A stretch of 64,000 nucleotides of DNA from the NCBI GenBank assembly GCA_934130045.1, contig CAKOXI010000001.1, positions 14,900 to 78,899 of the forward strand, read 5' to 3'. This DNA is from an uncultured Bacilli bacterium (lineage in GTDB: Bacteria; Bacillota_I; Bacilli_A; RF39; UBA660). Positions 24,408 to 48,117 of the stretch are shown here, piece after piece. The notes under the pieces were generated by a model. The model ran no database searches, had not been told where the DNA came from, and saw only the letters and a list, made by a program, of their open reading frames with translations. The position numbers and the translations under genes are program-made. Position 1 is the stretch's first letter. Each line of letters begins with the position of its first letter.

Positions 24408-25064
24408 GTGATAAAAAAAATATTGAAAATTTCATTTTTGTACTTTTTTTTGAGTTTATTACCTATTAGTGCTAAAGCCTTTTGTAGAGAAAGCAGTATG
24501 TCTTCACTCAAAGAACTTGCTAGCAATATAAATGTAAGCTATTCATATAAAATTCAGAATGATTATGCTTTATTTGATGTTACTTTGGACAATGTATTTG
24601 GTGAAGTTTATGTACTAGATGAAAATCAAAATAGATATGATTATAATAAATATAATAAAGGCGTTTTAGTTTTTACAAACCTTTCACAGGGAAAAAATTA
24701 TGCTTTTCAAATTTATGCTAATGGTGGTGAATGTGGTGATGCATATTTGACCACTGTTTATGCTACTACACCTACATATAATAGATATTATAATTCAAAT
24801 ATATGTAGTAATGCTAAAGAATATGAATTATGTGGAAGATGGGTTAGTCATAATTTGAATTATCATGATTTTGTTAATAAAGTTAAAGAATATGTAGAAA
24901 AAAAAGATAATGATAAAACAATCGAAGATAATAAAAGTATACCTACAATATCTTATGTACTAAATTTTATTGAAATGTATTATGTGTATATAATTATTAC
25001 CATTGTTATTGTTATTTTACTAATTAAATATATAAAATATAAACGCGATACATTTGGATTTTAG
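24408..25064 (+). CDS. Hypothetical secreted protein with a C-terminal TM anchor
   Basis: It starts with GTG and has a signal peptide LLPISAKA and a C-terminal TM YVYIIITIVIVILLI. It is the first gene of the co-directional island block. Confidence 0.4.
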   Translation: MIKKILKISFLYFFLSLLPISAKAFCRESSMSSLKELASNINVSYSYKIQNDYALFDVTLDNVFGEVYVLDENQNRYDYNKYNKGVLVFTNLSQGKNYAFQIYANGGECGDAYLTTVYATTPTYNRYYNSNICSNAKEYELCGRWVSHNLNYHDFVNKVKEYVEKKDNDKTIEDNKSIPTISYVLNFIEMYYVYIIITIVIVILLIKYIKYKRDTFGF

Positions 25065-25078
25065 AAAAAGGTGAATTT

Positions 25079-25459
25079 ATGAAAAAAATATTGATTGTCG
25101 TTAATTTAATGATAATTGCATTTGCCATGAGTGGGTGTGGATGCAGCAAGAAAAATAAAATATTACAGTGTACTAGTGAACTAGATGAATATAATGAAAA
25201 AAAATATGTTGAAGCAAAATTTGAAGATGATTATTTAGTAAGTCAATCTATTGAAACTACAACAGTTTTTGATAGTGAAATAAATGCGACAAGATTTTAT
25301 GAAATGTACAAAGATTCTGACATGTATGAAACATCAATAAATGGATTAGAAGTTACTTTGAAACAAAATGCTGACAATTCCTCGACTGATGATATATTTA
25401 AATATGATAATTTCTATAATTCAATGATTGAAAATAATTTTAAATGTAAAAAAAAGTAA
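25079..25459 (+). CDS. Putative small lipoprotein
   Basis: The product begins MKKILIVVNLMIIAFAMSGCGCSK, with a lipobox. Confidence 0.5.
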   Translation: MKKILIVVNLMIIAFAMSGCGCSKKNKILQCTSELDEYNEKKYVEAKFEDDYLVSQSIETTTVFDSEINATRFYEMYKDSDMYETSINGLEVTLKQNADNSSTDDIFKYDNFYNSMIENNFKCKKK

Positions 25460-25474
25460 CAAGGTGGTGATATA

Positions 25475-28400
25475 ATGAAGAAAAAAAGATTTTTATTATT
25501 AATGATTATGTTTATTACCAACTTTTTAATAGTTACAAATGTAAGTGCCGCGGTTGGAGAGTGGATTGGTGATTATTGTGATTCATGTGGTACTTATGGA
25601 ACTGCGGGAAAATGTGATCAGGTTAAGTATACTAATGTTGGCTTATTTCGAGTAACATTTTATTTGAATGGTGAAAAAATCGGCTCTAGTGTTAATGTTA
25701 GCAGCAACGAAACGTATAAAGATTTAGCAAAAAATGCAAAGTGGCATTGGGGTGATGGAAAAACTGATATTGTATCATATGCATCAGGTCAAACTTTAGG
25801 TACTCCTGTTTCTGGCGGACTTGATACAATTGTTATTAATGGTATAAATGTAAGTAATGTTCAAAACAAATTAAGCCCATCAAAAAATTCAAAAAATGTT
25901 CAGAAAATTTTAACTGAAGCTGGTATTACAAAATTTAAATTTAAAAATGGAAAAATATATTATACACCAGATGATGGAGTGTGCGAGGAAGATTATCAAA
26001 TTCAAATGGTTGTTGAATCTATGCAAGTCATTAATTGGCTATGTACTACAGATGGACTTGATAATCATAGGTGGATTGGGACACCTTATGAATTAAATAA
26101 TGGTTTGTTGCAACAAGGTTATGATAGTCATGTTGGCGGAAACGGTTATATGAGTGGCTCAATTGTTGATAAAACATTATTAAGCTCTCTTAGAATAGAT
26201 AAAGATGTTAAAATTGGTAATGTTGCTTTTACTTCAGTTGATGATTGCTTGAAAATACATATTAGAGGGTACAAACCAACGGAAGGGTATGGATTTAATG
26301 TTTATGATTTAACAGGAGAGATAAAAATTGATTGTGAACCAGAATGTTGTGTTCCATGTAATACATCAAATCCAAATTTAATCACTGCAATAAATTCTGG
26401 TAAATTTGCATGTGATCCAAATAACTGTGATGGTGAAGACGAAATAGCAACTGACATTGATTCAGAAGGAAAGCTTGTTTGTGAACCTTATATTCCTGAT
26501 GATTGTTGTAATCCAACAATAGAAGATTGCTGTGAGATTGGAACTAAATTATGTGGTGGTGGTATTGTTACTAAATCATATTATGACAAATATTGTACTA
26601 GCACATGTGAATATCAAATTGATCCCCCTACAGCGACTACTGGAGTGTGTACAACTGAAAAGTTACATTCTGAGTCTAAATTTACAGATGGTCATTTTAG
26701 TGAAAATTACTGGGTTTACCTAAATTTATTTTATCAAAACAAAGGTGCAATTTATCAAGAAGAAATGTCATCAACGTATTGTGAAACATATTGTCAAGAA
26801 AAAACTATAATAGAATTACCTGAAAATTATCCATATGTAAATGCAGGAAGGTATTTTACTTGGACAATAGCCGATTCAAAGGATTCTTTAATAAAAGAAA
26901 CTGTTTATAAAAACTGTGCTACTAATATTGAACTTGATAAATGGCGTAAAGATTATAAAAATGCATTAGATGATATAAATGGAAACTTTTATTATGTAAA
27001 GAACGATACATCTCCTAGCGGAATAGAAAATAGGGCTTATGAATTGATTGATGCATACAATAAATGTATGGGTGATGCAAGTTCTCCATCTGATGAGCAA
27101 AAACAAGCATACAGAGATGGACTAAATATAGATGATATAAGAGATGGTGTAATTCAAGATATTAATGATTGGAATAGTAACTTGCAAAATGCAAAAGATG
27201 ATTATGGTGATGGGTCATATGGTAGTCATTGGGATAATGATTTTGGATGTGATGCACATCATCCAGGATGTTTTAATGATATGTCACCAAAACCAACTGA
27301 TGATGCCTCTATTGATGCTGCTACTGAAGAAAAAATTAATGAAATGTTTAAACAATCCCGCGAAAGCGTTTGCATTACTATGTTTTCAGATGGTACGAGA
27401 AGGCTAACTATTTTGGCAAATGCTAGGGGTGATTCAATAAGTATTGATGCTAAAAGCCGTAATGTAACTTATATTGAAAAAAGCTTGGAACCTACTTTAC
27501 ATAATTTGATTTCTCAATTAAAAAATTGCCAGTATGAAGATAATCCGGAAGACGGGCCAGAACTTTCACTTTCTGAATATTTTGAGAAATATTTAAGCAA
27601 TTTAAATTCCACAGATTTGAAACTAAATTTAAATTATCAAACTTATTTATCAGAAAGAGAATACTCAAATGATGATATGATTAAAAACTCAAACATTATT
27701 GAACCATCAAAAAATGGTGGCTGTAATCAAAAAGATAAAAATAAATGCAATCCGAAAGATATTTTTGAAAGCAATGTTTGTGAGAATAAAATTATAAAAG
27801 CTAATTCTAATGATGGTGAAGGTATTAATGAATATGGAATTGGTTTTATTCCATCAGTGCTTGGTGAAGATTCAGTTTACTCAAAAAAACAAGATATATC
27901 AGGGAATTGGAAATCTTATGTATTCCTTAAAACTACTTCGGAAAATGATTTTAAATTAAAAAATAATATTAATGCTTGTATTTGCAAAGACGGTACGATT
28001 ATTGATGCGGCTGAAGATGGAAGTTGTGAATGTCCTGATATGAATTCTGTAACAGAAATAATTGCTGATATTTCTGATCAATATTCTTGTTATTTTGAAT
28101 GGAAAACAACGTATTATTATACAACTGTAGAAGATGGAAATTTAAGTGTTGAATATATGACTCCTACAGGATTATATCCGTTACAGCTTGATTACTCTAA
28201 TATTGGTACAAATAACGGACATTTTAGCAATTTTATGAGAAATGGAATTCTTGGAAGTGTTCCACATTGTCAAGGTGGTGTATGCCATTATTCTGATGAA
28301 GATGGGAAATGTTATTTTATAGTTAATAATGAAGTTATTACTGATGGTGGAAAAATTTATGACAATATTTGCCCAAATGGTAATTGCGGTGATGATGATA

Positions 28401-28921
28401 AATGTACTGAAGGGGATTGCTCTAATTATTGTGAAGTAGGCCATTGTTCTAATGATTCTAGTATTGGTGGAATGGAAATTATTTATAGGCAAGTTGATTT
28501 AAATAATCCATTTCCAGATAGAGAAGCTGGCAAAAATTGGCAAGGACATGAGAGTATAATAACACTTAATCGTGAAGTGGAAGGCTCAAATTTGTATAGT
28601 AGTAAACTTGAACCAGTTTATTCAATTACAATGACACCTGCAACTATAAAAGAAATTAGAAAGGTTAATGAAGCATTAAATTATGATTATTCATCAATTG
28701 GTACTATGATTTTTGATAAAGAAAAAATAACTGGTGGAGTAAGTTATATATTACGTGGAAGTTTAAAAAATATTGCTGAAAGTACTGGTGGAACATTTAC
28801 TATTAATTTAAATGATGCTAATACCGATGGAAGATTTGATGAAATTATGAATAATCCAAGTATAGACAGTTCTGGTAATTTAACAACTTGTCGTGAAATA
28901 GCAAGTGAGGTGATAGGATGA
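25475..28921 (+). CDS. Very large (1148 aa) secreted, extremely cysteine-rich protein; candidate pilus- or T4SS-associated adhesin or substrate
   Basis: The product has a signal peptide (FLIVTNVSAA). Dense CxxC and CC clusters occur throughout (DYCDSCGTYGTAGKCD, CCVPCNTS, DDCCNPTIEDCCEIG, CSNYCEVGHCSND). There is no LPxTG motif and no TM. Confidence 0.55.
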   Translation: MKKKRFLLLMIMFITNFLIVTNVSAAVGEWIGDYCDSCGTYGTAGKCDQVKYTNVGLFRVTFYLNGEKIGSSVNVSSNETYKDLAKNAKWHWGDGKTDIVSYASGQTLGTPVSGGLDTIVINGINVSNVQNKLSPSKNSKNVQKILTEAGITKFKFKNGKIYYTPDDGVCEEDYQIQMVVESMQVINWLCTTDGLDNHRWIGTPYELNNGLLQQGYDSHVGGNGYMSGSIVDKTLLSSLRIDKDVKIGNVAFTSVDDCLKIHIRGYKPTEGYGFNVYDLTGEIKIDCEPECCVPCNTSNPNLITAINSGKFACDPNNCDGEDEIATDIDSEGKLVCEPYIPDDCCNPTIEDCCEIGTKLCGGGIVTKSYYDKYCTSTCEYQIDPPTATTGVCTTEKLHSESKFTDGHFSENYWVYLNLFYQNKGAIYQEEMSSTYCETYCQEKTIIELPENYPYVNAGRYFTWTIADSKDSLIKETVYKNCATNIELDKWRKDYKNALDDINGNFYYVKNDTSPSGIENRAYELIDAYNKCMGDASSPSDEQKQAYRDGLNIDDIRDGVIQDINDWNSNLQNAKDDYGDGSYGSHWDNDFGCDAHHPGCFNDMSPKPTDDASIDAATEEKINEMFKQSRESVCITMFSDGTRRLTILANARGDSISIDAKSRNVTYIEKSLEPTLHNLISQLKNCQYEDNPEDGPELSLSEYFEKYLSNLNSTDLKLNLNYQTYLSEREYSNDDMIKNSNIIEPSKNGGCNQKDKNKCNPKDIFESNVCENKIIKANSNDGEGINEYGIGFIPSVLGEDSVYSKKQDISGNWKSYVFLKTTSENDFKLKNNINACICKDGTIIDAAEDGSCECPDMNSVTEIIADISDQYSCYFEWKTTYYYTTVEDGNLSVEYMTPTGLYPLQLDYSNIGTNNGHFSNFMRNGILGSVPHCQGGVCHYSDEDGKCYFIVNNEVITDGGKIYDNICPNGNCGDDDKCTEGDCSNYCEVGHCSNDSSIGGMEIIYRQVDLNNPFPDREAGKNWQGHESIITLNREVEGSNLYSSKLEPVYSITMTPATIKEIRKVNEALNYDYSSIGTMIFDKEKITGGVSYILRGSLKNIAESTGGTFTINLNDANTDGRFDEIMNNPSIDSSGNLTTCREIASEVIG

Positions 28922-29319
28922 AGGAATCACTTTGGAGTATATTTATTGTTGGGGTTGGAGTTACAATGATATTCTTTATATATTTTTTTCAATCTTTAAC
29001 TAATACAGATGAACAAAATTATGCAATGTTAAAAGAAACTGTTGAAGCTTCAATGTATGATTCCTTTGATCTTGCATCATATCATGCAAGTGGGGTATAT
29101 AGAATTGATGCTGAAAAGTTTGTCGAAAGTTTTTACAGGAGATTTGCTGAAAATGCAAATTTGGCTAGAACTTATGAAATAAAAATAATGGACATCAATG
29201 AGACTCCACCTAAAGTAAGTGTAAAGGTTTCTTCCAGTCAAAGCAGTAGCTTTACTGGTGAAATAATAAATTTTGATATTTCTAATACTATTGATGCAAT
29301 ATTAGAAACGCCATATTAA
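28918..29319 (+). CDS. Small N-terminally anchored membrane protein (pilin- or pseudopilin-like topology)
   Basis: Its ATG overlaps the stop of the giant upstream gene (ATGA). An N-terminal TM (IFIVGVGVTMIFFIYFF) is followed by a ~100-aa domain. Confidence 0.4.
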   Translation: MKESLWSIFIVGVGVTMIFFIYFFQSLTNTDEQNYAMLKETVEASMYDSFDLASYHASGVYRIDAEKFVESFYRRFAENANLARTYEIKIMDINETPPKVSVKVSSSQSSSFTGEIINFDISNTIDAILETPY

Positions 29320-29336
29320 AAAGAAGGAGAGAAAAT

Positions 29337-30152
29337 ATGAATAATGTAATTATTTCAGTAAAAAAATTTTTTACAAATAAGAATACTGTAACAATTCTTG
29401 GTGTAATTGTAATTATTTTAATTATTTATTTTGGTTACAATTCACAAATTAAAAAAGCAACTAACCCTATACAGGTTCCAGTTGCAAGTAAAACAATACA
29501 ACCTAGAACATTAATTACTGATGATATGATAAAATTAACAAGTATACCATCTGTATCAGTATCTACTAATGTAATACGTAGTAAGGCAAGTGTTGTTGGA
29601 AAATATACTGCTGTTAATACTGTAATACCAAGTGGTAGTATGTTTTATCAAGAAGCAGTTGTCAGTAAAAGACCTGATGCTGTTTTTGAAAATGTCAATG
29701 ATGGAGAAGTTTTATATAATTTTCCAGTTACTATGGCTTCAACTTATGGTAATTTGATTTTGCCTGGTAGTTATATTGATATTTATATGAAGGCTGTTAA
29801 TGGAACAAATGGATTAATGGTTGGCAAATTATTAGAAAATGTTAAAGTCTTAGCTGTTAAGGATAGTAGTGGTAATGATGTTTTTGAAGATACTTCAACA
29901 AATAGAACTCCTGCTTATATCTATTTTGGTGTAACAGAAGATATTAATATTTTATTACGTAAGGCTCAATATATGACAAGTAATTCTGTTGTGTTATTCC
30001 CTGTTCCACATGGTACAATTGTATCTGATGAGGATTTAGTAACTGAAGTTAGTACTCAGTATTTAAGAGATTTTATTAATGCTAATACAATTGTTATTGA
30101 TTCTACAAAAACTGATAATGTATCTAATACTACTACAAATGGTGAACAATAA
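29337..30152 (+). CDS. CpaB/RcpC-like pilus assembly protein (N-terminal TM plus SAF domain)
   Basis: An N-terminal TM is followed by a SAF-like segment (IQPRTLITDDMIKLTSIP...ASVVGKYTAVNTVIPSGSMF), matching the architecture of Flp-pilus CpaB. Confidence 0.5.
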   Translation: MNNVIISVKKFFTNKNTVTILGVIVIILIIYFGYNSQIKKATNPIQVPVASKTIQPRTLITDDMIKLTSIPSVSVSTNVIRSKASVVGKYTAVNTVIPSGSMFYQEAVVSKRPDAVFENVNDGEVLYNFPVTMASTYGNLILPGSYIDIYMKAVNGTNGLMVGKLLENVKVLAVKDSSGNDVFEDTSTNRTPAYIYFGVTEDINILLRKAQYMTSNSVVLFPVPHGTIVSDEDLVTEVSTQYLRDFINANTIVIDSTKTDNVSNTTTNGEQ

Positions 30153-31297
30153 TGAATGATAATATGTTTCAATCAATCGACTTTGGACCTTTAAAGGAGT
30201 ATCTTGATACTGATGATATCACCGATATTTCTTATAGTAATGGTGGACAAGTATGGTTGAAAACATTGTCAAGAGGAAATTATAGGGTAGAAAATCCTGC
30301 TATAAATAATCAGTTTATGGAAAAACTAGCATTTCAGTGTTCAAATGTTATGGGTAAAACATTTAATATGGCTCATCCGTTTTTGGATGCTGAAAGTGCT
30401 GAGTTACGTCTTAATTTTGTTCATGAATCTATTGCTAGAAATGGTATAGCTGTCGTAGTTCGTAAAACTCCAGCTAAAATTAGGCTTGAAAAAGAAAAAA
30501 TATTAAGAGAAAATTATATTACTCTTGATATACATAATTTTTTAGAATACTGTGTTTTAGGTCATTGCAACATAATTGTTTGTGGTGAAACTGGTTCTGG
30601 TAAAACTGAATTTGTTAAATATCTTGCTTCAAAAATTCGTGAAAATGAAAAGATAATAACAATTGAGGATACATTGGAACTTCACCTTGATAGAATATTT
30701 CCACATCGTGATATTGTTGCGATGAAAACGAATAATATTGCTTCATATACTGATGTATTGGTAACATGTATGCGCCAAAATCCTAAATGGATTTTATTAT
30801 CAGAGGTACGTAGTGCTGAAGCTGTTTTGGCGGTTCGTAACTCAATATCTTCAGGACACTATATTTTATCTACTATTCATGCTGATAAAGCTGCTTCAAT
30901 ACCAAGCCGTATGTATAGTTTGCTTGAGACTAATCAAGATATTGATCAATTTTTAAAGTCTATTCATAGATATGTTCAAATTGGTGTATATATACGTGGT
31001 TATCAAGATAAGAAAACAGGGCATTTTATTCGTGAAATAGCTGAAGTAACTGAATTTTATGTATCAAAAGATAATAAAGCTGAGTCAAATACAATTTATA
31101 GAAAAACTCCTGAGGGAAGTGTACATCGTAATAATCCAAGTCCATATTTAATTGATTATTTAGAGGCACAGGGAGTAATTTTACCTAAAGATATTATTGA
31201 TGTTGATAAAAATCAAAATGTAGTAGTTAATAATGATAATTTAAAAAACATTACAAATGAAAATAATACAGAAAATATAGAAGTTTTATTTGAATAG
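30152..31297 (+). CDS. TadA/CpaF-family secretion ATPase (VirB11/GspE superfamily)
   Basis: The product has Walker A IIVCGETGSGKTEF, an Asp box/Walker B IITIEDTLEL and a His box LSTIHAD. It is coupled to upstream and downstream genes. Confidence 0.75.
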   Translation: MNDNMFQSIDFGPLKEYLDTDDITDISYSNGGQVWLKTLSRGNYRVENPAINNQFMEKLAFQCSNVMGKTFNMAHPFLDAESAELRLNFVHESIARNGIAVVVRKTPAKIRLEKEKILRENYITLDIHNFLEYCVLGHCNIIVCGETGSGKTEFVKYLASKIRENEKIITIEDTLELHLDRIFPHRDIVAMKTNNIASYTDVLVTCMRQNPKWILLSEVRSAEAVLAVRNSISSGHYILSTIHADKAASIPSRMYSLLETNQDIDQFLKSIHRYVQIGVYIRGYQDKKTGHFIREIAEVTEFYVSKDNKAESNTIYRKTPEGSVHRNNPSPYLIDYLEAQGVILPKDIIDVDKNQNVVVNNDNLKNITNENNTENIEVLFE

Positions 31298-31308
31298 GAG
31301 GAGTTTGC

Positions 31309-32211
31309 ATGAATTTTCTAATGTTAATAATTATATCAGCTATTATAATATTTATTACTGTATACCGTAGAAATATTGGAACTGATGTTTATAAATTTTT
31401 TACAAATAAAGCTGGTTTAATTTATGATAAATTTGCCCCATATTCTTTTAAAATTATAAGAGAAAAGGTAAAAGATTTAGGTCAGGAATATACTCCAAGA
31501 CAATATGCAATTCAAATAGTTACTTTTGCAGTTTTTGGCTTTATGGTTTCATATATGTATTTTTACAGTATAATTATTTCTATTATGTATGCGTTAATAG
31601 CAATTGCTGTAATACCATATTTAACATACTTGCGTTGTAAAAGAGTATATAGTGAATTTATTTTTGAACAAATTCAGGTTTATACTACAAATACTATTAT
31701 GGAGTTTGCTACTACTCAATCCTTTGTTAAAGCTTTGGAAGGAGTAGTACAGTCAGGTGTACTTGAAGATCCTGTTAAGTCTGATGTTGAGTTGATGATC
31801 AGTATGGCCTATGAAAATGGTACAATTGAACAATCCTTAGTATATATGAATGAAAAATATGATTATTATGTTGTAAAAAATATGCATCAGTTGTTTTTAC
31901 AAATAACTAATGAAGGTAGTAAAGATTCTAGTGAAGCATTAGAGAATATGTCTCTTGATATAGATATGCTTGTAGAGGGAGTATATCGTGATAGGATGGA
32001 TCGTGCTAATTTCCATAAAAAATTTTTACAATTTGGTATAATTTTATATTTATTAGTTATGTTAGTTCAGTTTATGCTTGGAGTTGATTCCTATATTTCA
32101 TTATTAAGTAATTGGATGGTACAAGCAATACTTCATTTGATAATAGTTATTAATTCTTTATTTTTACTAAATGGAGAAAAATATTATAATGAGAATGTGG
32201 GTGGTGAATAA
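31309..32211 (+). CDS. TadB-like inner-membrane platform protein (T2SSF-type)
   Basis: It has an N-terminal TM plus two C-terminal TMs. The cytoplasmic segment carries T2SSF-like LEGVVQSGVL and GTIEQSLVYMNEKY elements. Confidence 0.5.
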   Translation: MNFLMLIIISAIIIFITVYRRNIGTDVYKFFTNKAGLIYDKFAPYSFKIIREKVKDLGQEYTPRQYAIQIVTFAVFGFMVSYMYFYSIIISIMYALIAIAVIPYLTYLRCKRVYSEFIFEQIQVYTTNTIMEFATTQSFVKALEGVVQSGVLEDPVKSDVELMISMAYENGTIEQSLVYMNEKYDYYVVKNMHQLFLQITNEGSKDSSEALENMSLDIDMLVEGVYRDRMDRANFHKKFLQFGIILYLLVMLVQFMLGVDSYISLLSNWMVQAILHLIIVINSLFLLNGEKYYNENVGGE

Positions 32212-32993
32212 TGAATTTTATAATAATTGCGGTAATTATTTTGTTTATATTAGAATATAACAAACAAATTGATACAAAAAAATTTATTAATGACATTGAC
32301 CCTTATTTTCGATTTTTAATGGAAGATGATTATAAATTTTTGTTAACCGTTAAATATGGTAATGATGTTGATTTGGACAAAATGTTTTCAAAAAGAATCA
32401 GAGATGGATTGGTAGTAATTGTTTTTATAATATTTTTGTTTTTATATAAATTAAATTTTTTATATGTTATTTTTTCCATAGTTGTTGGTTTTTTAGCATT
32501 CAAATTACCATACAATCAGTTAAAAAATTTTTATAAAAAAAATTTGTATAAAATTAATTTGATGTTACCTTATTATTTAAAAGGATTAGAAATTTTAATT
32601 CAACATTATACTGTTCCTGTTGCTTTGAGTCGTTCAGTGGAAACAGCTCCAGAAATTTTTCAACCTGGTTTACAAAGACTTGTAGCAAGAATTGAAGAAG
32701 GTGATTCATCTGTTGATCCATATATGGATTTTGCAAAAGAATATCCTGTTAGAGATTCGATGAGAATGATGAGACTATTATATCGTTTAGGACTTGGTAG
32801 TCAGGAAAATAAGCAAGAACAGTTAATAATGTTTTCTAAAACAGTTTCTACGTTACAAAATAAGTCTCGTGAACAAAAATATAAGGATCGTTTGGATCAT
32901 ATGGAAAATAAAACAATGCAGATGTTATTTGCAACAGGTGGTGGAATACTACTTTTGATGTTATTTGCAATGATGATGATGATGAAATTTTAG
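32211..32993 (+). CDS. TadC-like inner-membrane platform protein (T2SSF-type)
   Basis: Its start overlaps the TadB-like stop. The topology is TMs, a cytoplasmic helical domain (LQRLVARIEEGDS) and C-terminal TMs. It ends in an (ATG)5 repeat encoding MMMMM. Confidence 0.45.
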   Translation: MNFIIIAVIILFILEYNKQIDTKKFINDIDPYFRFLMEDDYKFLLTVKYGNDVDLDKMFSKRIRDGLVVIVFIIFLFLYKLNFLYVIFSIVVGFLAFKLPYNQLKNFYKKNLYKINLMLPYYLKGLEILIQHYTVPVALSRSVETAPEIFQPGLQRLVARIEEGDSSVDPYMDFAKEYPVRDSMRMMRLLYRLGLGSQENKQEQLIMFSKTVSTLQNKSREQKYKDRLDHMENKTMQMLFATGGGILLLMLFAMMMMMKF

Positions 32994-33066
32994 AGGAATT
33001 TGTTTATTTTATTTAGTTTATGATATAATATATACGTAATTAATTTTAAGTAAAGGTGGTGAGATA

Positions 33067-33285: not shown

Positions 33286-33308
33286 TATTTATTTGAAGGG
33301 AGTAACTT

Positions 33309-34028: not shown

Positions 34029-34058
34029 TTTTATATTTTTAGTGATTGAGGTGATTAG

Positions 34059-34541: not shown

Positions 34542-34553
34542 GAAGGTGTTAAA

Positions 34554-40916: not shown

Positions 40917-41240
40917 ATGTATGGAAGATTTTTAATTCCTGCAAACTCGAAAAAATCGGCATTGATACTTGGTTTATTTAAGCCTGCCGATTTAGTTATA
41001 ATATCGATAGGTGTGATTTTGTCATTTATTTTATTACTTACATTACCTATTGAACAAATGACATATACGATAATTGCTATTTTTCCTGCTTCATTTGCTG
41101 CTTTCTTAGTTTTTCCAATGGCATATTATCACAATGTAAGAACATTCATTGTTATACTTTTTAAGTATTTAACATCTAGACAAAAATTTGTATGGAAGGG
41201 TTGGTGTTATATAGATGAAGTCAACAAATTCAAAAAGTAA
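40917..41240 (+). CDS. VirB3-like small membrane protein (PrgI/ConD/Orf17-type)
   Basis: The 107-aa product has two TMs and lies immediately upstream of, and overlapping, the VirB4 ATPase, the conserved position for VirB3-like proteins. The RBS is AAGGAGG. Confidence 0.5.
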   Translation: MYGRFLIPANSKKSALILGLFKPADLVIISIGVILSFILLLTLPIEQMTYTIIAIFPASFAAFLVFPMAYYHNVRTFIVILFKYLTSRQKFVWKGWCYIDEVNKFKK

Positions 41241-41775
41241 ATATACTAATGATGTATTTGTTCCAATTAAAAGCATAACAAATGGTATGATTATTTTGGA
41301 TAATAATTTAAAAGTTTCTGGTGTTAAGATTAGACCAAGAAATATATTTATTCTTGAACAAGAAGCGCAAGATATTATTATTTCAAATCTAAAAAATGTT
41401 TATAATATGATTGATTATGAATTTTGGATAATTGCAGCTGATAGACCAGTTGATATTCATGTATATTTATCTCAATTGCAACTTCTTTATAATTCTGTAA
41501 CAAGTCAAGCAAAAAGAAAATTAATAACGCAAGATATTCAAAAAGCAAATATGTTTATGAATAATAATGTTGTTGATACTGAGTATTATTTGCTTTTCAA
41601 ACATAAAGATATTGATGTTATACAAAAGAGAATTCGTAATTTAATTAATAATTTTGCAAATGCTGGTTTAACTACTGCGCAGACATCCAATGATGATTTA
41701 AGAATGGTATTAGATAACTTTTTAAATGGTGGTCAAACCACTACGTTTGGGACGGTGATGAGTGATGGATATTAA
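41215..41775 (+). CDS. VirB4-family T4SS ATPase, N-terminal fragment (frame 1)
   Basis: The 186-aa fragment ends 14 nt inside the next ORF. Together the two parts reconstitute a ~780-aa VirB4/TraE/ConE-like protein. Confidence 0.55.
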   Translation: MKSTNSKSKYTNDVFVPIKSITNGMIILDNNLKVSGVKIRPRNIFILEQEAQDIIISNLKNVYNMIDYEFWIIAADRPVDIHVYLSQLQLLYNSVTSQAKRKLITQDIQKANMFMNNNVVDTEYYLLFKHKDIDVIQKRIRNLINNFANAGLTTAQTSNDDLRMVLDNFLNGGQTTTFGTVMSDGY

Positions 41776-43549
41776 GAGTCAAATAGCTCCAAAAGGGCTT
41801 GAATTTAAAGCTGCAGATTTTGTTATAAGTGATAAATATGCTTGTATATTAACAGTAGTTTCTTATCCTAAATATATAGAACCTGGTTATTTATCAAATT
41901 TAACTAGTATGTCAGGTATTAAGGTTGTTATTAAACATTTACCATTACCTTTTGATATCTTAAGAAGAATGCTTAATAAAGAAATTGCTGACTTGAAACA
42001 AAGATATCATGAAGAAAATGATAAAACAATTCAAGAAAGAATTAGACAGGATTATGAATCATTGGAACAATTTATTTCTCAAATTGCTGCAAGTCAGTCA
42101 AAAATATATGATTTCCAAATGCATATTATGGTTACTGCTGATTCACAAGAAGAATTAGCAGGAAAAAAATTCCAAATAAAAAACTATTTGGAAGCAATGG
42201 AAATGAAAGCATTTCCACTTAGATTTGAACAAGAAAAAGTTTTAAAATCGATGATTCCAATATTTCCTAAACAAGATATTGAAGAAAGAATTGGTACACC
42301 AATGCCTACACCAACAATGGCGGCAATGTATCCATTTATTTTCGATAGTATAAAAGATCCAGGGTTAGCTACTTTACTCGGAGTTGATTTTTCTGGTGGT
42401 GTAATATTATTTAATCAATTTTTATATCAAATAAAAAAAGAACACAATAGAAATAATGCTAATTTAATTATTTTAGGTACATCTGGTTCTGGTAAATCAA
42501 CTGCTGCTAAATTAATGCTTCGTTCTCATATTAGAAATAATTGCAAAATTATTTATATAGATCCAGAGGGCGAATTAGAGGAAATGGCTAAAATGTATGA
42601 TGGTGATTTTATGGATTTAGGTAAGGGTGGAGAATATGGTATGATTAATCCACTTGAGGTTGTAATGGATGCAGATGAAGATGAAATTAAAGAGGGATTG
42701 GGATATACTGTATTAACAAGAACTTTACAAACTATAAAAGCTTTTTTAAAGTATTATGATCCTTCAATTGAAGAAGATGTTTTAACAATGTTTAGTGAAG
42801 TTGTTCAGGACACATATAGACGTTTTGGTATGAATTTTGATACTGATTTTTCTAAATTTAAATCTGAAGATTATCCAACATTTAGGGATGTATATGCGAC
42901 TATAAAGGGACGTATTTTATCAATGCCTGAGCAAAGCCATGAAAAAGATATATTGGAAAAACTTGAAATTAAGATTAGACCAATTACAAAAGAATTAAAG
43001 TATTACTTTGATGGTCATACAACTATATCTCCTAATAGTGATTTTATTGTATTTAATATAAGAGAACTTATGAATGCTGATACAAATATTAGAAATGCAT
43101 TATTCTTTAATATTTTGAAATATGCATGGGGATTAACTTTGGATAAAAGTGTAAATTCAGTTCTAACTGTTGATGAAGCTCACGTACTTTTAAGTGGAAA
43201 TAATACATTAGGGGCTGACTTCTTAGCTCAAATTCAAAGACGTGCTAGAAAATATAATACTGGTACAATAATTATTACACAACAACCAAGTGATTTTAGT
43301 GATCCAAATGTTATTACACAGGGAAAAGCTATATTTGATAATGCTTCATATTATTTAATAATGGGATTAAAAAAACAAGCAGTAGAAGATTTAGCAAAAT
43401 TAATTGATTTAAATGAAAATGAAAAGGAAAGTATTAAACGTTACAATCAAGGAGAAGCACTATTTGTTTGTGGTAGTAGACGTATGAGAATAAATGTTGT
43501 TGTTACCGAACAAGAATTAGATTCGTTTGGTAGCGGTGGAGGTTTGTAG
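41762..43549 (+). CDS. VirB4-family T4SS ATPase, C-terminal fragment (frame 2) carrying the Walker A/B motifs
   Basis: The product has Walker A LIILGTSGSGKST, Walker B LTVDEAH and a CagE/TrbE/VirB4 C-domain. It overlaps the upstream fragment at 41762-41775 in the +1 frame. Confidence 0.75.
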   Translation: MMDIKSQIAPKGLEFKAADFVISDKYACILTVVSYPKYIEPGYLSNLTSMSGIKVVIKHLPLPFDILRRMLNKEIADLKQRYHEENDKTIQERIRQDYESLEQFISQIAASQSKIYDFQMHIMVTADSQEELAGKKFQIKNYLEAMEMKAFPLRFEQEKVLKSMIPIFPKQDIEERIGTPMPTPTMAAMYPFIFDSIKDPGLATLLGVDFSGGVILFNQFLYQIKKEHNRNNANLIILGTSGSGKSTAAKLMLRSHIRNNCKIIYIDPEGELEEMAKMYDGDFMDLGKGGEYGMINPLEVVMDADEDEIKEGLGYTVLTRTLQTIKAFLKYYDPSIEEDVLTMFSEVVQDTYRRFGMNFDTDFSKFKSEDYPTFRDVYATIKGRILSMPEQSHEKDILEKLEIKIRPITKELKYYFDGHTTISPNSDFIVFNIRELMNADTNIRNALFFNILKYAWGLTLDKSVNSVLTVDEAHVLLSGNNTLGADFLAQIQRRARKYNTGTIIITQQPSDFSDPNVITQGKAIFDNASYYLIMGLKKQAVEDLAKLIDLNENEKESIKRYNQGEALFVCGSRRMRINVVVTEQELDSFGSGGGL

Positions 43550-43562: not shown

Positions 43563-45281
43563 GTGGTGAGGTTAATGGATAATGAAAATAATAAAAATAA
43601 TGATTTAGTAAAGCAAACATCTAAAGTTGCATTAAATGCAGCCTTATCACCTATAAAAAAGAGTATATTATTAAGTCTTTTGCCTATAATACCGTATTTA
43701 ATTGGTGCATTTTTAATTATCATATTATTTTGCGGAATTTATATGTCCATTGATGAACAAGCAGATGCTGTTACAAACCTTGGTCAAAAGGTTGGAAATG
43801 CAGTTCAGCTTTATGGGTTTAAAACTGAGGCAGAAGTTGAACAACAAGAAGAAGATAGATTTTATAATACTCTTGAATTTTACAAGGGTGTTTATGATTT
43901 AGATCGTTATGACATTCTTTTGATATCTAATACATTACTTTTTGAAGGAATGTATGAAGATAAACTAGAATTTGTTGAGGATAGTCGTGATGAAATTGAA
44001 ATCACTATACCTAGTAAGGATGGTAATATTTTAGTTGAATTTTTTGATATGATTAATTCTATTTATAAAAGTTTTTATAGTGGTTTTTCAAGTGCATTTA
44101 TGAGCTCTAGTCAATATAAGAAGGCTAATAAAATTTTATCTGAACCTGTTATAGTAATAAAAAAATGTCACAGTTTAACTAGTAATATGGAAGATTTTAA
44201 GCAATGTTATCGTGGATATTTAGTAGCTGAATATGATGAATTTTTAGATCAACTTATTGAATCTGATAAGATAGAAACAGAAGTTAAACCAGGATATTTA
44301 ATTCTTGACGATATATTTAATCTTAAGGATTTAAATATAGATTTAAATGATGAAATTGAAGATAGTTTGTTTAATTTAAATAATTTTATTTTTAAATTTA
44401 ATCCCGTTGCTTGGCTTTTAAATGCTATTCGTATACATTTGGGTGTTGAATTTAAACGTTTTAATGACCAATTAAGAACCGCTATTACTATTTTAATATT
44501 TGGAAAATTAGCAGGTCCACCAATTGATAGAAGTTGGTGGAATAATAAGCATTTTTTCTATAATGGATATATTGTTAAATACTTGAGGGAATATTATAAA
44601 ATTTCAAAGGATGAATATTCAGATGGTAATTTGAATGATATTTATACAGATAGGAAAAATAAGTTAGAAATTGCTAATTTGATTATTGAAACAACTGATG
44701 CATATATGGATATGGATTCTGATACTAAAAATAATAATCCTAGTAAAGGCGATTCTGGATATGCAACTGGTTCAAGTTGTAAACCGATAAGTTCAAATGA
44801 TTTAGAAAGTTTTTCATCTCCTACAAATGGTGTATCATGTTCAGTTAATTCATGTTTTGGAGTTTATGCTGGAAAATGGGCATGTACTGCACATAAGGGT
44901 GTTGATGTTAATGCTTCTAGCGGAATATATGGTGTTTGCGATGGTGTTGTTACATTTGCTGGTATGTATAATAATGGTTCAGCTAGTGCCATAGAAACGG
45001 ATTGTAATATAAATGGTAAAGTGTACCATGTTAGATATCTTCATATGCCACTGGATGATGTTTATAGATTTAAAGTTGGAGATGTAATAAGTAGTGGACA
45101 ACGACTTGGTAATCAAGGAGCAGTTGGTAATGGTGTAACAGGTGCTCATTTGCATTTGGATGTTTCTTTAAATGGGGTGTATGTTAATCCTGAATCAATA
45201 GTTTCTGGATGTAGTTTTTCTTATGATTGCGAAGGAACGCGTAATAGTTGTCAATCTACTGGACAGTATTTTTGTAAATAG
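43563..45281 (+). CDS. Membrane-anchored peptidoglycan hydrolase with a C-terminal M23 (LytM-type) peptidase domain; T4SS cell-wall-remodelling enzyme (VirB1 functional analog)
   Basis: An N-terminal TM is followed by a C-terminal M23 domain with HxxxD (AHKGVD) and HxH (AHLHLD) motifs. It lies between virB4 and virD4. Confidence 0.7.
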   Translation: MVRLMDNENNKNNDLVKQTSKVALNAALSPIKKSILLSLLPIIPYLIGAFLIIILFCGIYMSIDEQADAVTNLGQKVGNAVQLYGFKTEAEVEQQEEDRFYNTLEFYKGVYDLDRYDILLISNTLLFEGMYEDKLEFVEDSRDEIEITIPSKDGNILVEFFDMINSIYKSFYSGFSSAFMSSSQYKKANKILSEPVIVIKKCHSLTSNMEDFKQCYRGYLVAEYDEFLDQLIESDKIETEVKPGYLILDDIFNLKDLNIDLNDEIEDSLFNLNNFIFKFNPVAWLLNAIRIHLGVEFKRFNDQLRTAITILIFGKLAGPPIDRSWWNNKHFFYNGYIVKYLREYYKISKDEYSDGNLNDIYTDRKNKLEIANLIIETTDAYMDMDSDTKNNNPSKGDSGYATGSSCKPISSNDLESFSSPTNGVSCSVNSCFGVYAGKWACTAHKGVDVNASSGIYGVCDGVVTFAGMYNNGSASAIETDCNINGKVYHVRYLHMPLDDVYRFKVGDVISSGQRLGNQGAVGNGVTGAHLHLDVSLNGVYVNPESIVSGCSFSYDCEGTRNSCQSTGQYFCK

Positions 45282-45295
45282 AAAATGGTGGTTTT

Positions 45296-45994
45296 ATGAA
45301 ATATAAATTTGTTTTAATTCTTTTTTCATTATTATTTTGTTGTACTGCCTGTTCTATTAACTATAATATTGAATTAAATGAAAGTAATTATTATGAAAAA
45401 ATATATGCCATTGAGAATCATATCGATTATTTTAAAAAGAATAATAATTCATATAAAAATTTAGTTGGATATAACAAATTAAACGTCGAGACTGAACTTG
45501 ATCAACCACAGGATTTAGATTATTTAAAACTTTATAATTATTTTAATGTAATAGAATCTGGTGCTTATTTGGATGGAGAAATTAGAAGCTTTGCTGAATA
45601 CAGCTTTGGATTATATAAATGTTATGATGATTATATTTTAGAAAATAATGATAATATCATAACTTTAAAAACTAGTGGTAATTTTCTTTGTGATAATATT
45701 TTAAGTCAAACAGATAATTTTTATGTTAATATTAAAAGTGATTATAAATTGATTGAAACTAATGCAAATACAGTTAAAAATAATATTTATACTTGGAATT
45801 TAAAAGAAAATGTTGATAAAAATATAATTTTGAAATTGAAAGTTGAAAATTTAAATAATAAAATAAATGAAAGCTCGAAAAGTAAATTTTTAGATTTTAA
45901 ATTTTTAACAGTAACTTTATTTGGAACTGTATTATTAATAACATTTATATCTTTGTTTATATATATTAAAAATAAGAATTCAAATAAAATTTGA
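45296..45994 (+). CDS. Hypothetical lipoprotein with a C-terminal TM anchor (T4SS accessory)
   Basis: The product has a signal peptide/lipobox LLFCCTAC and a C-terminal TM FLTVTLFGTVLLITFISLFIYI. Its stop overlaps the virD4 start. Confidence 0.4.
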   Translation: MKYKFVLILFSLLFCCTACSINYNIELNESNYYEKIYAIENHIDYFKKNNNSYKNLVGYNKLNVETELDQPQDLDYLKLYNYFNVIESGAYLDGEIRSFAEYSFGLYKCYDDYILENNDNIITLKTSGNFLCDNILSQTDNFYVNIKSDYKLIETNANTVKNNIYTWNLKENVDKNIILKLKVENLNNKINESSKSKFLDFKFLTVTLFGTVLLITFISLFIYIKNKNSNKI

Positions 45995-48117
45995 ATGGAG
46001 TGATACTAATGAAATTAAAATTTAGAGCTACACCAAAGGATATGTTAGCATTTGCTGGTTTTTCTGTTGTTCTTTTGTATTTTGTTGCAATTGCAATTTT
46101 AAATATATCAACATTTGTAAAAACTGGTGAATTATCTGGTTTTAATCCATTTCCAGCATTTGTTGGTGAAAATTTACCTAAAACAATGATTGCATTTTTA
46201 CTTATTATCATTTTTGTTATAACTAGTGTTTCTTCAACTATATTTAATAGGGAAAAGGGTATTGGATTTGAAATAAAAGATAAGGCTGATAAAGGATATT
46301 CTCGTTGGGCAAAAGAAAAAGAAATGAAAAAAGAATTAAAAATGGTTTTACCTGGTGAGGAACATTCGCAATATGGCGGAATACCTTTAATTAATAATGG
46401 TAAAGAAATATGGGTCGATGATGGTGAGTATCATAATTTAATTATTGGTTCTACTGGTAGTGGTAAAACCCAAATGACTGTTCAACCAATGGTTAAGTGT
46501 TTAGCTAAAAGTAATCAGTCAATGATTATTACAGACCCAAAAGGTGAAATATATGAAAATAATGCTACGGAATTAAGAGAACGTGGTTATAAAATTGTTT
46601 TACTTAATTTTCGTGATCCACAAAAAGGAAATTGTTGGAATCCATTAGCACTCCCTTATTCACTTTATAAATCAGGAAATTCTGATAAAGCTAATGAGTT
46701 GCTTGATGACCTTGCTATGAATATCTTGTATGATGAGAAATCCCAAAATTCTGATCCATTCTGGGAAAAAACTTCTGCTGATTATTTTGCAGGACTGGCT
46801 TTAGCTCTATTTGATGATGCTAAAGAGGAAGAAATAAATTTAAATACAATAAATTTAATGACTACTGTTGGTGAAGAAAAATTTAGAAATACAACATATA
46901 TGAAAGAATACTTTAGCTATAAAGATCAAGCATCTCCTGCTTATGTTAATGTTTCTAGTACTTTATTAGCACCATCTGATACAAAAGGGTCAATTTTATC
47001 AGTATTTAAGCAAAAAATAAAGTTGTTTTCTTCTCGTGAAAATTTATCAGAAATGTTATCACATAGTGATTTTGATATGAAAGATATCGGTAGAGAAAAA
47101 ACTGCAGTATTTATTGTTGTTCAAGATGAAAAAAAGACATACCATTCTTTAGTAACAATATTTATAAAGCAAGTATATGAAACTTTAATTGATGTTGCAC
47201 AAGAATCTGGTGGAAAACTTCCATTTAGAACTAATTTTATTCTTGATGAATTTGCTAATATGCCACCATTAAAGGATGTTACTACAATGGTTACTGCAGC
47301 TCGTAGTAGGGCAATTAGATTTAGTTTTATTATTCAAAATTTTGCACAATTATATCAAGTGTATGGAAAAGAAAATGGTGAAACTATAAAAGGTAACTGT
47401 GGTAATATTGTTTATTTAATAAGTAGTGAACTTGCTGCATTAGAAGAATTGAGTAAAATGTGTGGTGAAGAAAAATCAAAAGAAAAAGATAAAACAGCAT
47501 CTACACCACTTGTTACTGTCAGTGATTTACAAAGACTTCCACAATGGAGTATGGTTGTTTTAAGAATTAGAATGATGCCATTTAAAACGAAATTGACACC
47601 TAATTGGAAAATGGAAAAAGAAAATTTGTGGGGTAAAAAGTACGAAAAAGCTGAATATCCTACACGTGAAAAAGAGCCATTACATTTATTTGATTTAAAG
47701 AAATTTGTTGAAGAAAAAAATGAAGAAAAAATGAGACAAATGATGAATGGCAATAATGATAACACTATTCCTGGAATGATGGGTGGAAATCCTTTTGGTT
47801 TTGGTGGAGGTATTCCTCCAATGTTTGGTGGTATGAGTTCAAATAATAATGCAGGAAATAATTCTCAAGGTGGATTTAATGTTGAAGATATAATTAAAAA
47901 GATTGATGAAAAAATTGCTGCAATAGAGGAAGAAGAAAGACAACAATCATTGCAATCTGAAAGTAAAAAAGATATACTTGATAATAATGATGATAAAATT
48001 ATTCAACAAAATACAGAATTTGATAACAATATTATTCAAGAAAAATCAGAACCTGATAATAATTCAGAAGTTTCAGATGATCAGTTTTTTGATGATTTCT
48101 TCAGTGATGAAGATTAA
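45991..48117 (+). CDS. VirD4/TraG/TcpA-type coupling protein (T4CP)
   Basis: The product has N-terminal TMs, Walker A LIIGSTGSGKTQ and Walker B NFILDEFAN. Its tail is G/N-rich low-complexity with an acidic C-terminus (DDQFFDDFFSDED). Confidence 0.8.
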   Translation: MNGVILMKLKFRATPKDMLAFAGFSVVLLYFVAIAILNISTFVKTGELSGFNPFPAFVGENLPKTMIAFLLIIIFVITSVSSTIFNREKGIGFEIKDKADKGYSRWAKEKEMKKELKMVLPGEEHSQYGGIPLINNGKEIWVDDGEYHNLIIGSTGSGKTQMTVQPMVKCLAKSNQSMIITDPKGEIYENNATELRERGYKIVLLNFRDPQKGNCWNPLALPYSLYKSGNSDKANELLDDLAMNILYDEKSQNSDPFWEKTSADYFAGLALALFDDAKEEEINLNTINLMTTVGEEKFRNTTYMKEYFSYKDQASPAYVNVSSTLLAPSDTKGSILSVFKQKIKLFSSRENLSEMLSHSDFDMKDIGREKTAVFIVVQDEKKTYHSLVTIFIKQVYETLIDVAQESGGKLPFRTNFILDEFANMPPLKDVTTMVTAARSRAIRFSFIIQNFAQLYQVYGKENGETIKGNCGNIVYLISSELAALEELSKMCGEEKSKEKDKTASTPLVTVSDLQRLPQWSMVVLRIRMMPFKTKLTPNWKMEKENLWGKKYEKAEYPTREKEPLHLFDLKKFVEEKNEEKMRQMMNGNNDNTIPGMMGGNPFGFGGGIPPMFGGMSSNNNAGNNSQGGFNVEDIIKKIDEKIAAIEEEERQQSLQSESKKDILDNNDDKIIQQNTEFDNNIIQEKSEPDNNSEVSDDQFFDDFFSDED

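Follow-up and report, generated by a model that had tools for sequence, protein, structure and literature searches.

The 64-kb window analyzed here (the whole stretch of 64,000 nucleotides of contig CAKOXI010000001.1, assembly GCA_934130045.1, from an uncultured Bacilli bacterium) carries a chromosomal block in which two modules are joined, a Tad-like type IV filament module and a monoderm type IV secretion system (T4SS). The block comprises 24 open reading frames (ORFs) between positions 22731 and 48117, all on the plus strand and either overlapping or separated by short gaps, in agreement with the co-directional arrangement described in the original prediction, which had been made from the nucleotide sequence alone. 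Pfam also recovered the core-gene flanks named there (scpAB/RNHCP and rnr): scpB, scpA, and RNHCP precede the block on its left side, and the genes to its right include rhodanese, SPFH, RmuC, and RNase R (rnr). The limits of the element, set at 24408-48117, had to be widened, to the left up to a start of the system at 22731 and to the right by three further pilin-like genes at 51924-53803. Furthermore, a VirB2-like pilin family, a split VirB4 N-domain, and an upstream 534-residue membrane protein had been missed. The window as a whole is very AT-rich, with a GC content of about 0.21 in the flanks versus about 0.28 in the block at 24-48 kb. Pfam scans covered the window ORFs of at least 90 residues; few ORFs were left unscanned, and three of these were read by eye. 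The features of the system are listed in Table 1.

Table 1. Features of the filament-T4SS system and associated genes in the 64-kb window (aa, amino acids; GA, gathering threshold; AF2, AlphaFold2)
Feature	Position	Strand	Evidence or remark
Polytopic membrane protein, 534 aa, large extracytoplasmic part	22731-24335	+	System member; no Pfam match
218-aa protein (signal peptide, C-terminal anchor) and 126-aa lipoprotein-like protein	24408-25459	+	Variable accessory genes; no significant families
Secreted Cys-rich giant protein, 1148 aa, 47 Cys	25475-28921	+	Signal peptide
DUF5411 protein, 133 aa, MKES leader followed by N-terminal hydrophobic anchor; candidate minor pilin/pseudopilin	28918-29319	+	PF17424, 169.6 bits
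CpaB/RcpC-like protein (SAF and RcpC, N-terminal anchor)	29337-30152	+	RcpC 27.8 bits (GA 28.8), SAF 21.0 bits (GA 21)
Hexameric secretion ATPase, VirB11/CpaF/FlaI group, Walker A GETGSGKT intact	30152-31297	+	T2SSE 95.7 bits, passes GA
Two paralogous polytopic proteins, 300 and 260 aa, GspF/TadB-TadC-like platform	31309-32993	+	Profile and fold evidence
Prepilin-like protein, 72 aa, leader MKEAA(G/S), hydrophobic helix of ~22 residues, small Cys-containing head	33067-33285	+	No terminator after the gene
Two pseudopilin-like proteins, 239 and 160 aa, leaders MREGIG and MKESLG followed by hydrophobic helix	33309-34541	+	Sequence
TadZ-like two-domain cytoplasmic protein, 336 aa; C-terminal ParA/MinD (SIMIBI) fold, degenerate P-loop	34554-35564	+	AF2 and Foldseek
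Two VirB2-like pilin-family genes, ~114 and 115 aa	35660-36004, 36129-36476	+	PF18895 family evidence
Two VirB6-like channel proteins, 715 and 709 aa, large variable extracytoplasmic and C-terminal regions	36511-38658, 38758-40887	+	TrbL_4 34.9 and 48.5 bits (GA 27)
VirB3-like protein (107 aa), VirB4 N-domain (186 aa, TraC-like), VirB4 ATPase (595 aa)	40917-43549	+	NF045975, P-loop_TraG, AAA_10
Membrane-anchored M23 peptidoglycan hydrolase (572 aa) and 232-aa lipoprotein-like protein	43563-45994	+	Variable slot of the system
VirD4-type coupling protein, N-terminal membrane anchor, intact Walker motifs, acidic C-terminal tail	45991-48117	+	PF02534 (T4SS-DNA_transf), 185 bits
Single-domain rhodanese	48169-48468	+	Rhodanese 63.8 bits; membership in the system uncertain
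Three further VirB2-like paralogues, 271, 111, and 226 aa; satellite array	51924-53803	-	tblastn and alignment

The T4SS set of the original prediction was borne out by hidden Markov models (HMMs) for VirB4, VirD4, both VirB6-like proteins, and the M23 hydrolase, and for the VirB3-like protein by the NCBIfam model NF045975, which describes the VirB4 protein of mycoplasma integrative and conjugative elements (ICEs) in 894 positions. Specifically, the 107-residue protein covers positions 2-95 of this model (E 0.004), the 186-residue protein positions 96-276 (E 1e-16), and the 595-residue protein positions 295-891 (E 2e-106, 357 bits); since the three ORFs line up one after another along a single model, the corresponding protein is taken to be split here into VirB3, the VirB4 N-domain, and the VirB4 ATPase. 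The VirB4 ATPase (41762-43549) exceeds the GA of P-loop_TraG (47.4 bits) and AAA_10 (46.5 bits), its scores with NF045975 and NF045971 (180 bits) both being below the equivalog cutoffs, and homologues of the N-domain match the TraC-like family PF26593. Both VirB6-like proteins match the mycoplasma-ICE families Mbov_0396 and MMCAP2_0566 below cutoff. VirD4 is matched by TrwB_AAD_bind (92 bits) and TraG-D_C (81 bits) in addition to PF02534, and its score of 293.5 bits with NF045973 (CD1115 family), above the cutoff of 250, places it in a curated family of conjugative type IV coupling proteins. The hydrolase (43563-45281) is recognized by Peptidase_M23 with 42.9 bits (cutoff 28.7); in other species, the slot after VirB4 is occupied by CHAP, GH25, glucosaminidase, SpoIID, or C39-like proteins. 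Among the proteins of the block, no family match was obtained for a VirB8-like subunit (NTF2 fold), candidates for which are the 232-residue protein and a 268-residue family in relatives. Judged by sequence comparison, the nearest curated relatives of the T4SS part are the conjugation proteins of mycoplasma ICEs and of the C. difficile type.

Direct HMM support in the Tad-like half came from the ATPase and, at borderline scores, from the CpaB-like protein, for which TIGR03177 (CpaB) gave 52.3 bits (cutoff 71) in addition to the values in Table 1. The TadB, TadC, pilin, pseudopilin, and TadZ candidates of the proposed Tad set had no direct match and needed support from profiles or folds. For the ATPase, the NCBIfam scores decreased from VirB11 (119 bits) via TadA-conjugal (98 bits) to TrbB (90 bits), all below cutoffs, and the best PDB sequences were FlaI (69.7 bits), CpaF (69.3 bits), and VirB11 (63.2 bits), a spread of less than 7 bits; the specific assignment to CpaF was consequently replaced by one to the VirB11/CpaF/FlaI group. 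The two platform proteins have no direct Pfam (including T2SSF) or NCBIfam match. The profile of the 300-residue protein matches the 260-residue protein (hhalign 94.8%, E 5e-8), and one of 16 distant homologues has a T2SSF match (E 3.9e-4). AF2 modeled the platform with a predicted local distance difference test (pLDDT) of 81, and the sole PDB matches of low root mean square deviation were the cytoplasmic domains of EpsF (Foldseek probability 0.98, E 1.1, TMt 0.68) and OutF (probability 0.87, E about 1). In the TadZ-like protein, the C-terminal domain was modeled with pLDDT values of 83-90 and the N-terminal domain with values below 50. Foldseek aligned the C-terminal domain with HypB, ParA, MinD, and MipZ at E values of 8e-6 to 1e-4 and a probability of 1.0, and the family alignment has a conserved RIIGxKNVTKxSGATT motif. 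The protein has no sequence-family match in Pfam or NCBIfam, and its profile found no match among PDB sequences; the modeled ParA/MinD-type fold is compatible with TadZ.

Four proteins of the filament module, namely the 72-residue protein, the two pseudopilin-like proteins, and the DUF5411 protein, have in common a short leader of the MKExxG type followed by a hydrophobic helix, and on these sequence features they look like a pilin with its minor pilins. The N-terminus MKEAAGEAN(L/M)TV and a CC..GG.W..C motif of the 72-residue protein are kept in 46 homologues. The two pseudopilin-like proteins are related to one another and present in 52 loci; one member of their family has a TadE match (E 5.4e-4), the window proteins themselves having none. 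The DUF5411 protein is 63-73% identical in relatives. The order of the filament genes (CpaB-like, ATPase, two platform proteins, pilin, pseudopilins, TadZ-like) is partly tad-like, and the canonical tad order claimed in the original prediction does not hold, with the pilin and the TadZ-like gene displaced. In nine species (e.g., locus L051, 1182-3755), a gene for a YfhO-family membrane glycosyltransferase (Pfam E 4e-140) lies between the TadC-like and pilin genes, a hint that the pilin, or the wall where the machine sits, may be glycosylated.

Two genes of a VirB2-like family of small two-helix membrane proteins lie at the junction of the two modules. T4SS_pilin (PF18895) matches the product of 36129-36476 with 16.5 bits, below the GA of 26.6, and matches 26 of about 56 family members from relatives at E values of at most 0.01, the best being 6.3e-7. 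The first of the two genes, with a likely ATG start at 35660 after AGGAGG, has its own promoter-like site, ribosome-binding site, and terminator, a hairpin at 36015-36031 followed by a T run; a promoter-like TTGTTA-17-TATAAT follows the hairpin at 36059-36087. The internal terminator-promoter pair at 36.0-36.1 kb, proposed earlier, was thus found, a general scan for promoter-like sites being uninformative in this AT-rich window (155 sites found, 155 expected). A promoter-like site and terminator of its own are as expected for the gene of an abundant subunit. The proteins of the satellite array, about 4 kb beyond virD4, are 30-44% identical to the product of 35660-36004, with the common motif IP..II.FG.ID..KAV...ED.IKKN; two of the three have Cys-rich C-terminal extensions, and the local GC content is raised. 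The window thus holds five VirB2-like paralogues, and relatives carry one to five copies next to VirB6. In other species, VirB2-like genes lie between the rhodanese gene and rmuC, the latter being located at 49692-50756 in the window; pilin-like genes in that position are seen in some of the species.

VirB4 relatives were detected in 329 species by a scan of one genome per species (GTDB representatives), the best 80 being 80-94% identical. The genomes carrying the best relatives are labeled uncultured Bacilli, Tenericutes, Mollicutes, Acholeplasma sp. CAG:878, "Ca. Faecisoma," and "Ca. Fimihabitans," and derive from the guts of humans, rabbits, deer, sheep, mice, and chickens. In the NCBI taxonomy the named ones stand under Mycoplasmatota incertae sedis; the lineage is probably GTDB RF39. 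The TadB candidate has more than 8,000 relatives of at least 70% identity in gut metagenomes, and these collapse to 243 representatives at 50% clustering, indicating one heavily sampled lineage; a look-up of this candidate located the window's own species in Hadza gut assemblies, whereas no exact match to the VirB4 product was obtained. Synteny was examined at 80 of the 329 relatives, counts referring to loci with enough sequence. In 54 of 58 loci, VirB4 is preceded by the TadZ-like gene, so that the co-occurrence of Tad and T4SS modules in relatives, for which the original prediction had asked comparative genomics, is the rule at this junction. VirD4 was present in 73 of the 80 loci, and a rhodanese gene was found at most 4.5 kb downstream of it in 52 of 57, with RmuC following in 21 of 22.

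The ratios of nonsynonymous to synonymous substitution rates (dN/dS) against the nearest other species, which are approximate because dS is about 1 and near saturation, were 0.04-0.13 for VirB4, the N-domain, the ATPase, VirD4, both platform proteins, and the TadZ-like protein, and 0.4-0.8 for the pilin, the VirB6 proteins, the hydrolase, and other surface proteins, with 0.15 for the housekeeping gene rmuC. Within these ranges, the VirB3/VirB4 set gave 0.04-0.09, the secretion ATPase 0.075, VirD4 0.09, and the TadZ-like protein 0.13, and the DUF5411 protein gave 0.08; the VirB6-like pair, only 25-35% identical between species, evolves fast (0.66-0.78). The same site and gene order across species together with strong purifying selection identify the block as an old, vertically kept, chromosomally fixed system, and the term "island" used in the original prediction, with its connotation of acquisition, was abandoned. 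A conserved core with diversifying exposed parts fits a long-resident functional machine and neither a recent island nor a decaying ICE.

As claimed originally, mobility functions are missing from the view: the scanned window ORFs have no Pfam match to relaxase, integrase, transposase, or replication families, and no relaxase, integrase, or replication protein was recognized among the three ORFs read by eye. Ten in-system unknown proteins from relatives likewise gave no match to relaxase, integrase, or replication families, and a direct-repeat search for att-like flanking repeats returned low-complexity chance matches only. No ComEA/ComEC-like gene was found in the window scans. The Rfam scan of the window yielded two tRNAs only, and riboswitch control is therefore not evident. 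One tRNA-Leu gene lies 2 kb to the left of the block, with scpAB and RNHCP in between; as an integration site it was rejected because of these intervening genes and the conserved site of the block. Nor was the higher GC content of the block accepted as evidence of horizontal transfer: the housekeeping region with gatCAB and aspS at 1-5 kb is raised to the same degree, and GC content here therefore tracks conserved coding sequence and not foreign origin.

Upstream of the filament module, the 534-residue protein has a homologue of 537 residues with 37% identity over the full length, whose gene immediately precedes that of the DUF5411 protein in a genome with the system next to secA. Since the protein stays with the system even in another chromosomal context, the start of the system was set at 22731. 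The identity to the protein in GCA_964408085.1 is 56%, with an approximate dN/dS of 0.39, and the 218-residue protein has few relatives (34-41% identity, approximate dN/dS 0.65). The giant Cys-rich exoprotein of the original prediction was recovered with its 47 Cys residues and signal peptide; it has no Pfam, NCBIfam, or PDB sequence match and no thioester domain match. It is variable and not universal, with partial matches of 31-38% identity in the nearest other species and none in three loci (L005 to L007), where the system lies beside hpf/secA. In these three loci, a thioredoxin-fold protein (weak TraF match, PedC-like; 4197-5477 in L005) and a bPH_3 protein precede the system. The thioredoxin-fold neighbor and the Cys-rich exposed parts suggest dedicated disulfide formation for the machine.

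Two observations concern genes elsewhere in the window. A tandem triplet of Tim44-like domain genes (195, 197, and 285 residues; 6761-8762, minus strand), unusual for a bacterium, sits in the part of lowest GC content, and adjacent DUF6323 and DUF6179 genes occupy a stretch of 0.16 GC at 57275-59021.

We consider it probable that the block encodes an old, vertically inherited, and domesticated cell-envelope apparatus of uncultured gut Bacilli/Mycoplasmatota, in which a monoderm T4SS is combined with a filament module of the pLS20 type, and that it is not a mobile element. In such a machine, the ATPase and platform proteins would polymerize the proteins with MKExxG leaders into a short filament or pseudopilus, and the CpaB-like and TadZ-like proteins would position its assembly. 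Acting with the VirB2-like pilins and with surface proteins that evolve fast (the Cys-rich giant, the ectodomains of VirB6, and the heads of the pilins), the filament would establish specific contact with another cell and/or, together with the hydrolase, open a path through the wall, and VirD4 would hand the substrate to the VirB4/VirB6 channel. The function would thus be contact-dependent transfer, and because a VirD4 of the conjugative type is retained, export appears a better description than uptake. Regarding the substrate, our best guess is DNA that members of one lineage exchange among themselves, as the archaeal Ced and Ups systems and chromosomal transfer in mycoplasmas would suggest by analogy; the relaxase would then be encoded at an unlinked site, or the process would be relaxase independent. 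It is nearly as likely that, as has been suggested for Patescibacteria, the machine delivers protein to a partner cell or pirates nutrients from it. A further-reaching reading, which we put forward tentatively and hold somewhat less likely to be right than wrong, is that an order-level lineage of gut bacteria with small genomes, related to Mycoplasmatota, has long kept a hybrid nanomachine, consisting of a conjugation-derived channel with VirB2-like pilins and a type IV filament motor, as a core function, serving either relaxase-free, species-specific exchange of chromosomal DNA or, in the way of Patescibacteria, obligate contact-dependent exploitation of partners.

Several observations weigh against a single domesticated apparatus as just described. 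Cooperation between the two modules is deduced from their linkage only, and the terminator and promoter at 36.0-36.1 kb separate the filament module from the T4SS. Four of the 58 species (loci L035, L046, L066, and L082) have the T4SS block with no Tad-like module detectable within 10 kb upstream. The platform, pilin, pseudopilin, and TadZ-like assignments draw on remote profile and fold evidence, with no direct family match, and the Foldseek E value for the GspF domain is poor despite the high probability. As far as sequence scores tell, the ATPase can be placed neither as CpaF nor as VirB11. The 72-residue protein has no Flp family match and lacks the G/XXXXEY motif (there is no E-Y pair), and neither the scanned ORFs of the window nor the three read by eye include a prepilin peptidase (TadV, Peptidase_A24), so that the Flp and TadV assignments had to be given up. 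Searches for a relaxase, a prepilin peptidase, and a second copy of the system were confined to the window, and the Pfam scan of 137 neighbor ORF clusters took in the top 25 families, which a rare relaxase or integrase among singletons could escape. Finally, all genomes are metagenome-assembled genomes (MAGs), and the near-saturated dS makes the estimates of selection approximate.

Some of these points would be accounted for if the block were two independent neighboring systems, a Tad-like adhesion pilus for gut colonization and a separate T4SS. Gram-positive gut bacteria are known to use Tad pili for adhesion, and both the terminator-promoter pair between the modules and the four species without a Tad-like module within 10 kb of the T4SS block speak for such an arrangement. 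Adjacency and order are kept, however, in 54 of 58 species, and unrelated Firmicutes plasmids have, within their conjugation operons, a homologous ATPase with a pair of platform proteins (PMC8557374). On a Mycoplasmatota plasmid, too, a canonical Flp/Tad set lies beside a VirB4 cluster. The terminator follows a pilin-family gene, a usual route to overexpression of a structural subunit, and is no boundary mark by itself. We consider two separate systems unlikely. Still less probable, in our judgment, is a decaying ICE, or one mobilizable in trans, whose relaxase and integrase are located elsewhere or were recently lost, although the nearest relatives of VirB4, VirB6, and VirD4 are all conjugation proteins, the GC content of the block is 0.28 against 0.21 in the flanks, and a tRNA-Leu gene lies 2 kb to the left. 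Such an element would hardly retain one site and one gene order in many species with all ATPase motifs intact and core dN/dS values (0.04-0.13, approximate) under the 0.15 of neighboring rmuC; moreover, att-like repeats were not found, scpAB and RNHCP stand between the tRNA gene and the block, and the GC content of the gatCAB/aspS region is similarly raised. We rate this the most improbable of the alternatives, and the view of the original prediction that the two modules are joined in one chromosomal block and are unlikely to be a classic ICE is retained.

A third possibility is a DNA uptake (competence) machine operating in import mode only, like ComB of Helicobacter or archaeal Ced. In Micrococcus, Tad-like pili drive transformation. 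Domesticated T4SSs do serve DNA import (PMC12857230; PMC12102498), Tad-like pili drive transformation in some bacteria (PMC8513845), and rmuC is linked to the block. ComB, however, works without VirD4 and VirB11 (PMC12857230), whereas VirD4, which receives substrates for export, ranks with the most strongly conserved components here, and the window has no ComEA/ComEC-like gene. Import as the sole mode is accordingly improbable, ranking between the two alternatives discussed above, and we prefer an exporting, domesticated filament-T4SS apparatus.

Among the known systems compared with the filament module are Tad/Flp (type IVc) pili. They appear to have in common with it a CpaB/RcpC-like protein (at borderline scores), a T2SSE-family ATPase, two paralogous proteins of putative platform type, small pilin and pseudopilin-like proteins with a shared leader, and an accessory protein with a predicted ParA/MinD fold. 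They differ in that the present block has no G/XXXXEY motif, no TadV in view, and no secretin, TadD, or TadG; the order flp-tadV-rcpCAB-tadZABCDEFG is not kept, the ATPase is no closer to CpaF than to VirB11 or FlaI, and Pfam T2SSF, Flp, and TadE do not match the window proteins. In the region 19962-37041 of CP074574, a 98-kb plasmid of Mycoplasmatota bacterium zrk4 typed as non-mobilizable, a VirB4 cluster is directly followed by a canonical Tad set, comprising an SAF protein, an AAA ATPase, CpaF, T2SSF, and Flp-type pilins with G/xxxxEY, and then by a 1650-residue protein. The association of Tad and T4SS genes thus recurs there. Between the TadB-candidate profile and the protein annotated as T2SSF on this plasmid, no match was obtained. 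The archaeal Ced and Ups systems resemble the machine proposed here as a domesticated, relaxase-less, conjugation-derived channel dependent on a type IV filament for cell contact (PMC12102498). Their sequence relation is weak (CedB/CedD, E 5e-4 to 4e-11, in P-loop parts), Ced has no VirD4, and Ced and Ups are encoded at separate loci.

To our knowledge, mycoplasma ICEs (MICE) have no filament module. Their proteins Mbov_0397 (VirB4) and Mbov_0396 are the best curated matches for VirB4 and both VirB6-like proteins, with scores below cutoffs, and their hosts are related to the host here. The MICE VirB4 is a single protein, whereas it is split into three ORFs here, and MICE are mobile by means of a DDE recombinase and reside in wall-less hosts, whereas the present system is chromosomally fixed in a walled host, as PBP5 and hydrolases in the window indicate. 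Chromosomal DNA is likewise transferred by the machinery of MICE, in the absence of a canonical relaxase (PMC12857230).

The coupling of the two modules, seen in the original prediction as suggesting an uncharacterized apparatus, has counterparts: conjugative plasmids of the pLS20 family and of other Firmicutes carry a homologous ATPase and two platform-like proteins. The closest plasmid relatives of the ATPase are annotated as "CpaF/VirB11 family" on plasmids of Bacillus, Lactococcus, Listeria, and Paraclostridium (30-33% identity). Tblastn of the block proteins against two plasmid loci found the ATPases only, and profile methods were needed for the rest; thus, the TadB-candidate profile matches the protein following the ATPase in a pLS20-like Paraclostridium plasmid, the equivalent of gene 38 (hhalign 96.9%, E 1.8e-10). 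The plasmids of Paraclostridium and B. halotolerans encode a thioester adhesin, an N-anchored protein of about 128 residues, the ATPase, membrane proteins of about 270 and 240 residues, and small N-anchored and 47-residue proteins, and the Paraclostridium plasmid continues with VirD4, VirB6, DUF5592, VirB4, and a hydrolase. The order is that of the present block, namely a large surface protein, an N-anchored protein of about 130 residues, a VirB11/CpaF ATPase, two membrane proteins of about 240-300 residues, small N-anchored or pilin-sized proteins, and the T4SS. On two such plasmids (L001, 23196-23599; L010, 8781-9147), one or two tandem unannotated proteins of 47-65 residues, pilin-sized and with a central hydrophobic helix, are encoded just after the platform-like genes. 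The DUF5411 profile aligned in register with the small protein preceding the ATPase, not significantly. From these profile matches and the shared order, we conclude that the filament module has its homologue in one part of the pLS20-type conjugation operons already known from Gram-positive bacteria. In the pLS20-family operon, gene 37 has been described as a putative VirB11 and genes 36 and 38-41 as of unknown function, and pilus components have been called absent (PMC8557374). The 1148-residue protein occupies the slot of the surface adhesin of these operons, and the pLS20 adhesin (thioester, Tie) is not homologous to it. The pLS20-type plasmids have a relaxase (Rel_LS20), oriT, replication genes, and quorum-sensing control, none of which is present here, the block being chromosomal and clade-wide; conversely, the CpaB-like, TadZ-like, and VirB2-like genes present here are missing from pLS20. 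The VirB6 proteins here have no match to the pLS20_p028 family, and VirD4 lies at the end of the block and not before VirB6 as in the pLS20 type. Our literature searches found no paper linking pLS20 to TadB, TadC, or GspF, nor one linking the lineage, searched as RF39, to T4SS.

These relationships bear on current views of Gram-positive secretion. According to a review of December 2025, Gram-positive T4SSs universally lack VirB11 homologues, and Patescibacteria are unique among monoderms in having potential T4SS pili (PMC12857230). In a walled lineage of Bacilli/Mycoplasmatota, very common in the guts of humans and animals, the locus runs counter to both statements, because a VirB11/CpaF-family ATPase with GspF-like partners and prepilin-like proteins, as well as VirB2-like arrays, is chromosomally fixed there. 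For Gram-positive conjugation of the pLS20 type, it yields a concrete hypothesis of how mating pairs form or the wall is crossed, and for an uncultured gut group it opens an approach to the biology. If the hybrid nanomachine reading is true, the segment of pLS20-type plasmids described as VirB11 plus unknowns would be a hidden filament-assembly module, and Gram-positive conjugation systems would not be universally pilus-less.

Judged by analogy, the closest counterpart of the system as a whole is the chromosomal, relaxase-less T4SS of Patescibacteria (PMC12102498). Both are monoderm systems related to MPF_FATA, chromosomal and widespread in a reduced-genome lineage, with the relaxase absent and with arrays of divergent VirB2-like pilins matching PF18895. 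Patescibacteria belong to another phylum and encode their type IV pili separately, whereas a filament module is joined to the T4SS here; the block would thus represent a second, independent case of T4SS domestication in a lineage with reduced genomes. The combination is that of a pLS20-type filament module and a monoderm T4SS, domesticated in the manner of Patescibacteria.

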